Notes: generated by a model not told the origin, from the sequence alone. 64,000 nt of DNA from an uncultured Hormoscilla sp. (GCA_963921275.4 OZ001293.3:1888001-1952000), one strand, 5' to 3'. Numbered from the stretch's first letter, positions 16,412 through 45,113 are shown. Made by a program: numbers and translations.

Positions 16412-16712
16412 GGTCGGTGTTATATCTCAGGGCTTTAAGGTAACAGTTGAGGGACAGGTGGGGAGGAGATCGGGTCTTTGGATGTAAGCTTGTGTTAATC
16501 TATTTTATCTGACTGTCCCGCAAAGCAGGATTCATTCCCCGATGGTGGGCGGTGCCCACCCTACTTGCTTGCCGTGCGATCGCTCTTCCCACAATTCTAC
16601 CATAGTCCTTGCGGTTTGACAAAGTCGGCGGTCTGCGATCGCAGAAGAGAAGATGACCACCGCCGCCAATCTTGTGCTAGACTAGAGATAAAAGTATGGA
16701 GTTGATAGAGCT

Positions 16713-17465
16713 ATGGTTGCAAGTAGCAAGCCCGATGTACTAGAAGATCGGCAAAAGTTACTTTTGAGTGATGAACCGCCCTTGGAAACAGAACGCCATC
16801 TCAATCAAATCATGCTGTTACTGTGGTGCCTGAAGTGGTGGTGGCGCTCGCGCCCGGACGCACCACCTTCCCGACGCAACAATTTCTATGCAGCAGGAAA
16901 TTTGACTATATATTACAGTCCTCGTCAGCGCCGGAACGAGAACTTCCGGGGTCCAGATTTTTTTGTAGTATTAGACACGGAGTACAGGGAACGTACAAGT
17001 TGGGTAGTGTGGGAAGAAGATGGCAAGTATCCAAATGTGATTATAGAAATGCTATCCGACTCGACTGCCGAAACGGATAGGGTTACCAAGAGAGAACTAT
17101 ACCAGAATGTATTCAGAACGCCGGAATATTTTTGGTTTGATCCCTATAGCTTGGAGTTCCAAGGATTACGCCTTTCTCAAGAGGGAGAATATGTGGAGAT
17201 AACACAGAATGAGCGGGGGTGGATGTGGAGTGAACAGCTAGAATTGTATTTGGGAATAGTAGAAGAAAAACTGAGGTTTTTGATGGCAACGGGGGACTTG
17301 GTTCCAGATCCTACAGAATCATCTATCCAAGAAAGGCTAGAGAAAGAAGCAGAACGCCAACGGGCCGATGCAGAACGCCAACGGGCCGATGCAGCAGAGG
17401 TAAAATATGAAAGGTTGCGCAGTCAGCTACAAGAACGTGGGATAGATTCCGATGAATTCAATTAG
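16713..17465 (+). CDS. Uma2 family endonuclease with a short in-frame insertion
   Basis: FRGPDFFVV, SWVVWEEDGKYPNVIIE, TPEYFWFDP, coiled-coil tail. Confidence 0.9.
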   Translation: MVASSKPDVLEDRQKLLLSDEPPLETERHLNQIMLLLWCLKWWWRSRPDAPPSRRNNFYAAGNLTIYYSPRQRRNENFRGPDFFVVLDTEYRERTSWVVWEEDGKYPNVIIEMLSDSTAETDRVTKRELYQNVFRTPEYFWFDPYSLEFQGLRLSQEGEYVEITQNERGWMWSEQLELYLGIVEEKLRFLMATGDLVPDPTESSIQERLEKEAERQRADAERQRADAAEVKYERLRSQLQERGIDSDEFN

Positions 17466-17589
17466 GAGCCGATCGCCCTTTTGTCATGGTGCTTCCAGCG
17501 GTGATGACAACTTAATTCCTTGCCCCCGATCGCCCATATAATTCTACTCTAGAACTTGGGGCGATCGGATAGAGTTAATCTATTTCATC

Positions 17590-18109
17590 GCTTCCAGCAC
17601 TTCATATAAGGGTAAATCAACACGGCAATTTGTTCTGCTGTTAAACCGATTTTGGTTAACTTAGATACAGTATTTAATTTAGTTGCACGCCAAACATTCT
17701 CCACCGTTGCATTGGAATCTATTGTCTTTTGTAGATTTGATTCAGTATTTACCGCATCCCGGTTTTATAATTTGGCGGTTTCGGAATTATTGCAGAGATT
17801 AATATTATCAACACGAACATGATTTCCTATTACAGGGGACTGATAATTTGCGATTCCTAAACGTTCGATTGTGGCGGACAAATTAAATTTATTTAAATCT
17901 TCGCCAAAAATATCTGACAAAACTTGCTAGAGTTCGTATCCCTTATCCTTCGCATGACCAGTGGTGCATTTATACGTTTCTGCGATTTCTTCGTACTTCT
18001 GGCCATTGAGGGATCCCTTCAAAATTTCCATTTGCAGACTATCCAGGTGCTTCCCAGTTTGCTGGAAGACCAAATCATCGATCGACTTTAACACCGTTTG
18101 CCAGTCCAT
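17590..18109 (-). pseudogene. Truncated gene with the N-terminal HTH typical of cyanobacterial NACHT/AAA proteins
   Basis: DDLVFQQTGKHLDSLQMEILKGSLNGQKYEEIA...KDKGYEL*; the frame continues after the stop (QVLSDIFGEDLNK). Confidence 0.6.
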
Positions 18110-18472
18110 CCTCGCGATGACTCCTCCGAAACATCTACTTATCCGCCATTATCCGTCATTATCCGTCATTTTTGCATTTTTTAAGATAATTTTCGTATTT
18201 ATCCGTCTTTTTCCGACTTTTGCCTATTTCCCCTGCAAGGAACTTCCGAAATTTCTAGCTATCCGCCATTATCCGTTATTTTCACATTTTCTTAAGAAAA
18301 TATCCGTCTTTTTCCGTCTTTTTCCGTCTTGTCGATATTGAGACGACCAGGTGATAATAAGAATAGGAGTTGCGTATGTTCCTAAATAGATCGATGCTGG
18401 CAAGTTCTACAGGTGTAGCGGCGGCGTCAGCGCTGGATATAGCGGTACACCGAAGCAGTCCGCACCCAAGAC

Positions 18473-18560
18473 GTGACATTTTGTATAGGTCCGGCGGGAA
18501 CGGGGAAAACCTATTTAGCCGCAGTTCTGGTGTTCCAAGCATTGCTAAATAATCAGTGCG
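18473..18560 (+). pseudogene. phoH fragment (Walker A region only)
   Basis: [23 protein letters not shown]. Confidence 0.65.
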
Positions 18561-18578
18561 TAAGTTTCAAAAGGTTAA

Positions 18579-19717
18579 ATGACAATGAAAATTGTCAAGA
18601 CAATCACAAGCAGACTGTTTGTTGGTTTTACAGCTTTGGCCTTAATAGTTGGTTATTCACCTAAAGAAGTAAATGCACTAACAGGAAACGGAGGTAGCAC
18701 AGGTTGGAATAGAGTGGTGCGATGAGTTCTAGCCTAACGTGGTCAAACACGGAACGCTAGCCTAGGAAACTAGGAACTCTGGTAATCATGGGGGTTAAAT
18801 TCCCCCTCCCCAAGTACGGGGGTAACACCGGTCCTCGGTGCTGCGGAATAACATCACCGTGGTGCTAAGCGAGAACTTAAATGTAGGATAGCTAGCAGCC
18901 ACGGCTGGCGACTCCGCTAGGAAAGGTGTCCAAGGTTAGAACAAGCGAACCTATGTAAGCCTCGTCAGCCAAAACCGGCGAAATAAGGCTTTATGCGCCG
19001 GCACAAAAGTAGCCGTAGCTAGTGTTAGTTATCACTCCTGGCTAACAACGTACTCAAATAGCTATCGGGGTATAGTAGGAACCTAAAGGCATCGCGCTCC
19101 GGAGACCAGGGAACGAAGTAACCCCTCGCGAGCTGTCCGTCAGGACCAGTCAGATGTGAAGCGCAAGCCGCGAGCGGGAGAGATGGCCTAAGAAGCAAAT
19201 GCCCGGGGCAATACTTGGGATACGCAGACGTAGGTCGGTGATAGTAGGAAGTCTCGGATGAAAGTATCTCTAAATGTCATAAGCCCGTCACTGTTAATGA
19301 TTCCGAATGAATTGAAAGGGGAGAAATTGTAAGGGACAAGGGACAATAGGAGTAATCCTTATTAATCCTGCCAGTGGCAAAATGGCCTACTACCCAGTAG
19401 CCGGATGCGGTGAAAGTCGCAAGTCCGGTTCCGAATGGGAGGGTTGGTACGCGAGTACCAGCTCGACCCCTACTAGTACCACAGATGAGCAAAGTTGTGC
19501 GCAGAAAGCTGTACAGACAATGAACTGGTTGGTAGAGCAAGGAGAAATCCAAACCCTTACTGGTTCGAGTTCACGCTTTAGAAAAGGAAATAACGTCATT
19601 TTCAATGTTGTTTGCAGTCGTAATAGTGAAGTAAGGGTTGATGTTATTTGTTTTAATAGTTGTGACAAGGACACTTTTCGCCTTCGCTCTAGAATAGATG
19701 CACTTATGAATTGGTAA
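18579..19717 (+). CDS. Intron-split small secreted protein (~126 aa); exons 18579-18716 and 19475-19717
   Basis: Exon 1 is 46 whole codons with a signal peptide ([13 protein letters not shown]...VNA); exon 2 is in frame and has 4 Cys. Confidence 0.7.
18717..19474 (+). ncRNA. ORF-less group II intron (~758 nt)
   Basis: 5' GTGCG; domain V AGCCGGATGCGGTGAAAGTCGCAAGTCCGGTT; domain VI with bulged A; EBS1 loop CACTC pairs with exon end GAGTG; homologous to the introns at 43-45 kb. Confidence 0.92.
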
Positions 19718-19754
19718 AGAAAATCATTTTTTTTCAAAAGATTACAACAGAAAG

Positions 19755-19985
19755 ATGTGTTCAGAAACCCGGTTTCTTTATAAATGCGCGAAATGCGCGA
19801 TCGCCCCAAAATCAGAAACCGGATTTATACGATAACTTTTCCCTCACTACTGAAATATTTGTTCAGAAACCTGGTTTCTTTCGCTACCCGATCGCGGCCA
19901 GAAACCGGGTTTCGGCAATAAATTTGTTTGGCATCAAAACCGCAAGATTTGTTCAGAAACCCGGTTTCTTTAGCTACCCGATCGC
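19755..19985. repeat. Cluster of AGAAACCCGGTTTCT palindromic repeats
   Basis: About 5 copies here; further pairs at 25821-25852, 46240-46286, 49807-49848 and 57254-57287. Confidence 0.85.
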
Positions 19986-19999
19986 CCGCCGTCAGTGAG

Positions 20000-20550
20000 T
20001 CACCAGCGTCGATTAATTCCATAACTATCAAATTTCGGATCTGCACTAATGATTTCCATGTTTTCTGCGATCGCCTGTGCGATGAGTAGTCTATCGAACG
20101 GATCGCGGTGATGCAAGGGCAGTTTTGCCACAACAGTGAGATGCTCAATTATAACGGGCAGAACTTCAATGCTGTTCAGGGTCAGTTGTTTTGGAATAAA
20201 TGTTTCATAGGCATCTGGCAGGGTCAATTTTTTGAGATTGACCTTGATGGCAATTTCCCACAAGCTAGCAATACTGAGCAATATATCAATATCAGATTCC
20301 AATAGCTCGGCGGCATTGTTCCTCAGATTGGGATGATCGTTGATAAACCATAGAAAAGTATGGGTATAGCAGTTCTCAGATTAGTGTGATCTGCTGTCGG
20401 AGATTGCTAGCCCTCCTGGCGTCGGGCCGCTGCGCGAACGGGGGGGGTAACTCATCAAGCATAAGTTACTCGCTAGTCTACCCCCCTCGCAATGACAAAT
20501 AGGCGATACCACATCAATTTGAGAAACGCTATATCGATGAGTATTTTCAT
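20000..20550 (-). pseudogene. VapC (PIN) toxin interrupted by a MITE
   Basis: Removing 20367-20533 restores MKILIDTHTFLWFI...; HRDPFDRLLIAQA; start overlaps the antitoxin stop. Confidence 0.88.
20367..20531. mobile_element. 165-bp MITE with TA duplication
   Basis: TAGCAGTTCTCA...TGAGAAACGCTA ends; excision restores the vapC frame. Confidence 0.88.
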
Positions 20551-20774
20551 TCCATATATTCTCGAAAATATTCTAGTGGCTCATCAAAGTCGGGAGCCAT
20601 CTGGATCTGTCCTTTGGCACTTCCTCGTTGCCGCCGTTTGGCAGGAGACCCGAATTGAATCAGTTTAAGGATGGGTTGATTGTCACGGGTGATGATAATT
20701 TCCTCACCCCTCAGAGCAAATTGAAGAAGCTGACTAATTTGGACTTGAGCCTCAGTGATGTCAACCTGTTGCAC
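20547..20774 (-). CDS. Phd/YefM-type antitoxin
   Basis: GEEIIITRDNQP...GSAKGQIQMAPDFDEPL; upstream of vapC. Confidence 0.85.
   Translation of the reverse strand: MQQVDITEAQVQISQLLQFALRGEEIIITRDNQPILKLIQFGSPAKRRQRGSAKGQIQMAPDFDEPLEYFREYME

Positions 20775-43257: not shown

Positions 43258-45113
<1,856 letters not shown>

Follow-up and report, generated by a model that had tools for sequence, protein, structure and literature searches.

A 64,000-nucleotide (nt) stretch of DNA from an uncultured Hormoscilla sp. (GCA_963921275.4, OZ001293.3:1888001-1952000; the window below, with positions counted from its first base) was confirmed to carry a real split gene, in which the coding sequence of a small, putatively secreted protein is interrupted by a group II intron that itself encodes no protein. 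Exon 1 begins with the ATG at 18579 and runs on the + strand for 46 codons to ...GWNRV at 18716, where it abuts the GTGCG of the intron (18717-18721). The frame resumes at 19475 (AGT ACC...) and continues for 80 codons to the stop codon at 19715-19717. The spliced product would be 126 amino acids (aa) long with four Cys, or 124 aa if counted from the second ATG of exon 1 (18585), which is where the homologues begin. The initial annotation, made from the sequence by itself, had proposed both the 46-codon exon abutting GTGCG and an in-frame second exon giving about 126 aa with four Cys, and both were found in place on translation. It had also said that the list of open reading frames (ORFs) misses the gene. 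This was partly right, as the gene is never listed as one unit, but two pieces of it are listed, a 48-aa ORF (18579-18725) and a 111-aa ORF (19382-19717); the latter starts inside domain V of the intron and is recorded as a predicted protein of the genome (P0003).

The position of the junction was established from intron-free homologues. A search with exon 2 gave six candidates, all of which were accounted for: one is the 111-aa ORF of the window itself, and the remaining five are proteins of 126-135 aa (P0004-P0008). The identity of these five to exon 2 is 64-80% over 91-100% of its length, and in each of them sequence corresponding to exon 1 lies directly upstream, with ...GWNRV/STT... aligned without a gap (the slash here and below marks the junction), so that homologues span an in-frame junction as had been predicted. 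Exon 1 alone matched the closest homologue, P0004, with an E-value of 1.2e-18. P0004 is 100% identical to the gene of the metagenome-assembled genome (MAG) Hormoscilla sp. GUM202 (locus L038), and this locus is syntenic with the window: L038 2040-4132 corresponds to 16562-18716 at 90.3% identity and L038 4133-4534 aligns to 19475-19895. The alignment of the two DNAs breaks precisely at 18716/19475, and the intron-less orthologue that the initial annotation had suggested looking for in relatives was therefore obtained as an exact empty site, ...ggaatagagtg/agtactac.... The intron begins with G and exon 2 with A, and the intron ends with T and exon 1 with G, so the intron boundary cannot slide; because of the empty site AGAGTG/AGTAC in GUM202, both intron ends are fixed to the base. 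At the level of sequence, exact removal of the intron was shown to join AGAGTG to AGTACC and would restore a 126-aa frame colinear with the intron-free homologues. The intron lies in sense orientation between the codons for V46 and S47. Contigs of runs X1, X2, X3 and X5 cross both exon-intron borders and contain no joint of 18716 to 19475; the kind of contig is unrecorded, and this result is uninformative on expression.

Two further sequences end at the same place. The one homologue locus given by a metagenome scan for the same intron in other strains (L048 1-250; JAAUYJ010000522.1) has its contig end 4 nt upstream of the junction (AGTG/AGTACCACAGAT) and, as far as its sequence reaches, is free of an intron, with the exon-1-like AGTG attached. 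Protein P0012 also begins at the junction valine. These ends may be a coincidence or may reflect an assembly break at a variable intron site.

The intron itself was recognised by the Rfam model RF00029, which describes domains V and VI, at 19396-19473 on the + strand. The match scores 46 bits, above the gathering score of 40 (E 7.4e-6), and takes in the full length of the model (positions 1-77 of 77). Its 5' end GTGCG follows the GUGYG rule, and nearly all of the family copies listed start alike. In a consensus structure built from 27 representatives, 150 of the 152 family pairs can be formed by this intron, and representatives of the 61-copy and 20-copy subfamilies form 151 and 152 of them. 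When compared with a 94%-identical sister copy fragment (C1:4167383-4167821; C1 coordinates without a further prefix refer to genome G000), ten substitutions were specific to this intron, and the three of these which fall at paired sites all retain the pair. The sister fragment likewise keeps all of its paired sites, and so the comparison provides no contrast for dating or selection. The 3' end ...ACU departs from the usual ...AY, a departure which is common to 111 of the 400 distinct related 3' ends at many different sites (109 end in CCCCGACT and two in CCCCTACT). Base pairing in domains V and VI was read by eye from the sequence; the candidate branch-point adenosine, A19466, has no partner in the domain VI helix as drawn by hand and is located 8 nt before the 3' splice site. 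The minimum-energy fold of the whole intron had a z-score of -2.2 and was not used for domain assignment. Taken as sequence, the intron looks intact, a ribozyme without decay.

Recognition of the exons was examined through the exon-binding sites (EBS) of the intron and the intron-binding sites (IBS) of the exons. The pairing of CACTC with the exon end that had been proposed initially was recovered, as CACUC lies within the EBS1 loop CACUCC, and five of the six EBS1-IBS1 pairs form in this copy. Across the family the EBS1 loop covaries with the 5' exon, with 118 of 138 unique copies reaching at least five of six pairs, where shuffled flanks average 3.2. The column best covarying with the first base of the 3' exon is 19073, which pairs with that base in 127 of the 136 copies that have one there (A:T in 20 of 22, G:C in 3 of 3, and T:A in 90 and T:G in 14 of 111). 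This behaviour of the EBS3 candidate is of the IIB type, and the intron is accordingly described here as IIB-like. The claim that it is maturase-less was upheld, as the only + strand ORF of 30 aa or more in its 758 nt is the 111-aa frame running into exon 2, and from its sequence the intron is a non-autonomous derivative lacking a protein gene. Coordinates of all features are collected in Table 1.

Table 1. Coordinates of the split gene, its intron and the other split genes (window positions unless a contig is named)
Feature	Position	Strand	Description
Exon 1	18579..18716	+	46 codons; aligns to residues 1-44 of the intron-free homologues
Putative Sec signal peptide	18579..18677	+	Basic n-region (K/K/R), hydrophobic stretch, c-region ...EVNA; read from sequence
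IBS2 segment GGUUGG	18702..18707	+	Family register uses UUGG 18704-18707; register of the initial annotation uses all six bases
IBS1 AGAGUG	18711..18716	+	Last 6 bases of exon 1
Group II intron	18717..19474	+	758 nt, GUGCG...CCCCUACU; without a protein gene
EBS2 loop UCAGCCAA	18965..18972	+	From copy alignment, register scan and sister fragment
EBS1 CACUCC	19033..19038	+	Terminal loop of domain I
EBS3 candidate U	19073	+	Pairs with A19475, first base of exon 2
False N-terminus of the recorded 111-aa ORF	19382..19474	+	31 codons from intron domains V-VI
Domain V	19398..19431	+	AGC triad 19399-19401, GAAA loop 19412-19415, 2-nt bulge A19421-A19422
Domain VI and 3' end	19436..19474	+	Rfam match; candidate branch-point A 19466
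Exon 2	19475..19717	+	80 codons and stop; mature domain with 4 conserved Cys
Other split genes, sense orientation	G000 C1:5580677-5581511; C1:4811277-4812111; C1:5954245-5955114; C1:2801581-2802451		Same intron family

The N-terminus of the spliced product resembles a signal peptide with a putative V-N-A cleavage motif, and the signal-like pattern is conserved in the full-length homologues. An AlphaFold model of an orthologue (ten homologues) had a mean predicted local distance difference test (pLDDT) score of 79.5; values were above 90 for 76 residues and over most of residues 36-126, and below 50 for residues 1-30, which fits the reading of the N-terminus as a signal peptide. The model comprises a short pair of strands (residues 37-43), a helix (49-65), three strands and a second helix (111-123). 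Exon 1 encodes the strand pair, with the conserved GGSTGW, and a nearly invariant G-W; lacking these, exon 2 by itself would not give the domain, and nor would the 111-aa ORF. The protein had been said to belong to no recognised family, and no Pfam-A or NCBIfam match reached the cut-off: Pfam gave nothing for P0004 and P0007 and only PAZ for exon 2 (E 0.024, 15 bits against a cut-off of 28.8), and NCBIfam gave nothing meaningful, with the source records naming a 'hypothetical protein'. The suggested Foldseek comparison, made with two models against the PDB, gave no match at an E-value of 0.001 or better, and in the ESM Atlas the best score was 0.89, below the 0.9 line, with all matches being hypothetical proteins. 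With VIA-align the best hit was the C-terminal domain of phosphoglucomutase (Z 8.8); many unrelated alpha+beta domains scored Z 6-7, so this match was set aside as a common arrangement that offers no functional lead. A profile search of 1.84 billion representatives gave 14 proteins at E <=0.001, of which about nine were judged to be true relatives, and among genomes of the same order the host gene was present in 9 of 401, belonging to 4 of 142 genera (the genome of the window included). The host protein is thus a member of a very small family of putatively secreted, Cys-containing proteins. As a guess, it could be a disulfide-stabilised domain with a binding or surface-interaction role in this sponge-living lineage.

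Judged from the exons and the intron together, the gene is probably still spliced and used. A pre-mRNA would in that case be transcribed from upstream of 18579, and the intron would fold so that EBS1, the EBS2 loop and EBS3 hold both exons, with a maturase encoded elsewhere in the genome helping catalysis. The intron would then leave, probably as a lariat branched at A19466, and the ligated mRNA would be translated into a product exported via the Sec pathway, cut after ...VNA and folded into an alpha+beta domain of about 93 residues, probably with two disulfides. Four outgroup homologues share 71 invariant columns; the spliced product keeps 66 of them (the GUM202 protein 68) and all four Cys. 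Changes were polarised with the MAG gene L037 as outgroup and set against a neutral synonymous share of about 0.20. In the window lineage 12 changes are non-synonymous and 8 synonymous (11 and 8 in exon 2 alone), an excess of the latter (8/20, p 0.05; exon 2 8/19, binomial p 0.024), whereas the GUM202 lineage, with 11 and 3 (3/14), has no synonymous bias. The ratio of non-synonymous to synonymous divergence (dN/dS) relative to the outgroup was 0.40 for the window and 0.64 for GUM202. Both exon indels are of 3 nt and preserve the frame, and only 3 of 10 indels in the flanks are multiples of three. The substitution patterns therefore argue, mildly, for continued constraint.

Several observations weigh against a gene in use. 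The selection tests are based on small counts, and the changes are undatable relative to the insertion. The dN/dS between the window and GUM202 is only 0.51. A glycine invariant in all ten homologues (G96 in the numbering of P0004) is a serine in the window protein, in which the conserved P-x-G-N turn has also changed and lost one residue. Elsewhere in the genus the gene was recovered from only one of four genomes and not from the other three (two of five carry it when that of the window is included), and it is dispensable because of this. Its neighbourhood contains remnants of genes, among them a 30-aa piece of PhoH just upstream, and the sole other copy in the genome is truncated. The EBS2-IBS2 interaction is also short, with only 4 bp (CCAA/UUGG) in the register that covaries best across the family. 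Here the initial annotation had the right loop and the right exon segment, and it is the pairing register that is ambiguous: its own register, UCAGCC/GGUUGG, gives 6 bp including two G-U pairs, and the UCAACC of the sister fragment fits it better. Finally, a maturase-bearing parent of the ribozyme was not found among the 33 of 289 related 5' ends which have no 3' end within 1 kb; 19 of these 33 longer relatives have a more distant 3' end, and the longest ORF that they enclose is 303 aa, with no intact maturase. One maturase-bearing intron that was inspected (C1:3168096) shares only domain V and the first ~12 nt.

It is less likely, but well conceivable, that the gene is dead, silenced by the intron insertion or by loss of its promoter in a decaying region, and that the exons are open from recency only. 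The remnants nearby, the truncated paralogue, the dispensability of the gene and the changed glycine and turn all fit with this. By a rough estimate, not a computed one, a frame that has taken about 20 substitutions in 372 nt would stay free of stops by chance in some 4 of 10 cases. A promoter and terminator scan of 18300-19950 found three promoter-like sites against 2.3 expected; this is not above chance, as a dead gene would have it, and is uninformative. Against loss of function stand the bias of window-lineage changes towards synonymous sites, the frame-preserving exon indels, the absence of decay in the ribozyme and the fact that this genome tolerates and maintains other long split genes.

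These other split genes contain introns of the same family in sense orientation, and in all three of the best cases that were checked the Pfam match continues across the junction. In a glutamate synthase, GATase_2 runs to profile position 420 and is followed by Glu_syn_central from position 1; in a class-III aminotransferase the profile runs to 276 and continues from 282; in a DUF3352 protein it runs to 188 and continues from 189. The split glutamate synthase is open for 1082 aa beyond the intron. It may not be essential, as a second, intact glutamate-synthase-like ORF is present at C1:1318965. A reverse-transcriptase/maturase gene also appears, by eye, to be split. Introns are not enriched in genes: the sense frame is open for at least 40 codons on both sides after intron removal in 65 of 255 copies, with 58 for the antisense frame and 651 of 2000 for random positions. 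A practical consequence is that gene callers will mis-call at least three other genes that are similarly split.

The argument for a working trans-acting helper is indirect, as no maturase was linked to the ribozyme family. The genome has 75 matches to the GIIM maturase domain over the Pfam cut-off, and by our own count ~39 of them lie in open frames of at least 450 aa. Many copies of the intron are identical and without a protein gene, which points to recent mobility driven by a protein made elsewhere, and since mobility requires splicing, to splicing as well. Mobility and splicing by a protein made elsewhere have been shown experimentally for the TeI3/TeI4 introns of Thermosynechococcus (PMC2882425).

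A separate feature of the locus is a diverged patch that extends from 19475, precisely at the 3' splice site, to about 19920. Over window positions 19475-19919, 84 of 445 aligned bases (19%) differ from GUM202, while the flanks, upstream including exon 1 and again from ~19920, diverge by about 2-3% (0-4 differences per 60 nt). At synonymous sites, exon 2 diverges from GUM202 by 0.375 and exon 1 not at all (0). A possible explanation, though less likely than not, for this patch of ~445 nt with low-divergence DNA on either side is that the intron-bearing allele was acquired by homologous recombination from a diverged strain, which concerns its origin and not its function. No donor allele was found, the patch includes a repeat-rich 3' flank (19740-19920) that is possibly fast-evolving or badly aligned, and the change may lie on the GUM202 side, as polarised exon-2 changes number 19 for the window, 10 for GUM202 and 8 that are ambiguous. 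If recombination did occur, the position of the patch would imply that this route, too, carries intron-bearing alleles from strain to strain. Just downstream of the gene, at 19750-19980, a palindromic element occurs three times (TTGTTCAGAAACC[C/T]GGTTTCTTT followed by ...CCCGATCGC) along with degenerate copies; from their sequence these elements look like a small dispersed repeat.

Unspliced expression of exon 2 as the 111-aa ORF from the ATG at 19382, a frame which does exist and is recorded as P0003, is highly improbable, as intron domains V-VI account for its first 31 residues, which no homologue shares, and it has neither a signal peptide nor GGSTGW, a conserved strand of the predicted fold. 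The recorded protein thus has a false N-terminus taken from the intron, and the true product would be the 126-aa one.

The extent of the intron family in genome G000 was estimated by BLAST with the first 120 nt and the last 160 nt of the intron, a census that is rough and method-dependent. It gave 289 related 5' ends and 400 related 3' ends. Head-tail pairs 600-1000 nt apart, taken as complete copies without a protein gene, numbered 255, of which 138 have unique sequences; 123 pairs are 871 nt long, 63 are 835 nt long, and up to 61 copies are identical. An Rfam scan of the genome for domains V/VI gave at least 151 matches, with 150 of the 867 candidates scored. All four other genomes of the genus contain the family; a search of one sister-genus genome did not recover it. 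In a survey of 1,790 bacterial genomes the maximum was 101 group II introns per genome (PMC8919778), and the genome-wide load of introns is more striking than the single split gene.

The closest full-length relatives of the intron (~80% identity; C1:2265897, 4581308, 6622111, 1428685 and others) are nearly all inserted at a fixed site, directly after ...GGGTTAAATTCCC. This site lies inside domain I of other family copies and is matched by the EBS1 of these relatives, GGGAAT; on that sequence match, they are a self-targeting, intron-in-intron lineage. A nested arrangement is also seen within the window at 43258-45113, where an inner 835-nt intron (44145-44979; Rfam match 44901-44978) lies in domain IV of an outer intron that starts at ~43258 and ends with CCCCTAAT at ~45113, these outer bounds being inferred from BLAST ends and sequence reading.

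Split genes of this kind are already documented in cyanobacteria, and a single case is no surprise. A group II intron without a protein inside a protein gene is unusual in bacteria generally and is known in Trichodesmium. As described for Trichodesmium erythraeum (PMC4649490), that organism is, like the one studied here, a filamentous cyanobacterium with a high intron load and sense introns in protein genes; it also has introns nested in introns, and the introns without a protein gene inside its protein genes are spliced with help from elsewhere in the genome. Splicing in Trichodesmium was shown by reverse transcription PCR and RNA-seq (PMC4649490), whereas here it is predicted from DNA. The host genes differ as well, being conserved in Trichodesmium and a tiny orphan, putatively secreted protein here, and the intron load here appears to be at least ten times that reported for Trichodesmium (PMC4649490).

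The family structure has its closest likeness in Thermosynechococcus elongatus as reported in PMC2882425, where TeI3, a family without its own protein gene, outnumbers its protein-coding relatives. Subfamilies that differ in their EBS and insertion into other introns at a fixed site are shared with TeI3/TeI4, and dependence on a 'driver' protein made elsewhere, which is likely here, is shared with TeI3, an intron family spliced and mobilised by the TeI4 intron-encoded proteins (PMC2882425). Thermosynechococcus has 28 introns, few of them within genes, whereas 255 complete copies were counted here with several in genes; and the parent is known there (TeI4; PMC2882425), whereas the protein-encoding parent intron was not found here by the inspection described above. 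Explosive expansion of group II introns in a cyanobacterium has also been described in Arthrospira platensis (PMC8919778), whose 101 introns are the published record; the figures given here (289/400/255) were obtained by BLAST, another method, and are not directly comparable. Among the papers searched, none paired Hormoscilla with an intron or a group II intron.

Organellar group II introns are ancient, fixed and often degenerate; unlike them, the intron in the window appears young and structurally complete, and it belongs to a recently mobile family. Common to both is that splicing is needed before the gene can be read, and that no protein can come from the intron itself. Those organellar introns that are without maturases, in plant and Euglena plastids, depend on factors made elsewhere (PMC2882425). 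If the split genes of this genome have been kept working, it would depend on protein-assisted splicing from elsewhere to a degree undescribed for bacteria. A bolder proposal, less likely than not, is that dozens of splicing-dependent genes are served by a shared trans apparatus for more than 250 introns, the heaviest prokaryotic load, with intron-bearing alleles also moving by recombination. Were this true, the lineage would be a free-standing bacterial analogue of a stage proposed for early eukaryotes and organelles, with a few common protein factors serving many non-autonomous introns in genes.

The surroundings of the split gene were also examined. The PhoH remnant just upstream of exon 1 (18473-18560) is ~30 codons of a PhoH-like P-loop gene (Pfam PhoH, E 3.3e-6) and is also present in GUM202. 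Downstream, on the - strand, are a PIN-domain ORF (20000-20302) and a Phd/YefM-like or DUF2281 ORF (20547-20774), which are probably a toxin-antitoxin pair. The window has Uma2 and the PIN/Phd pair as neighbours of the gene, and the homologue in an uncultured MAG has SelO, Ppx/GppA and DUF2854; no gene context is shared between the two, which leaves no functional hint.

The truncated paralogue is located at C1:6877402-6877659 (L042 1459-1779). It has a 106-aa ORF that keeps the signal peptide and the first helix and is without the sheet and three of the four Cys, and it lies directly upstream of a gene that, by eye from its translation, is psbA-like. A split paralogue of this protein family in another genus (G204:C1, L057 230-1495) was considered as a second intron case and ruled out, as the interruption is an insertion sequence of ~1.27 kb with terminal inverted repeats and, on the opposite strand, a transposase-like ORF. 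Near this insertion, at L061 663-884, lies a HEARO RNA (RF02033, 118 bits).

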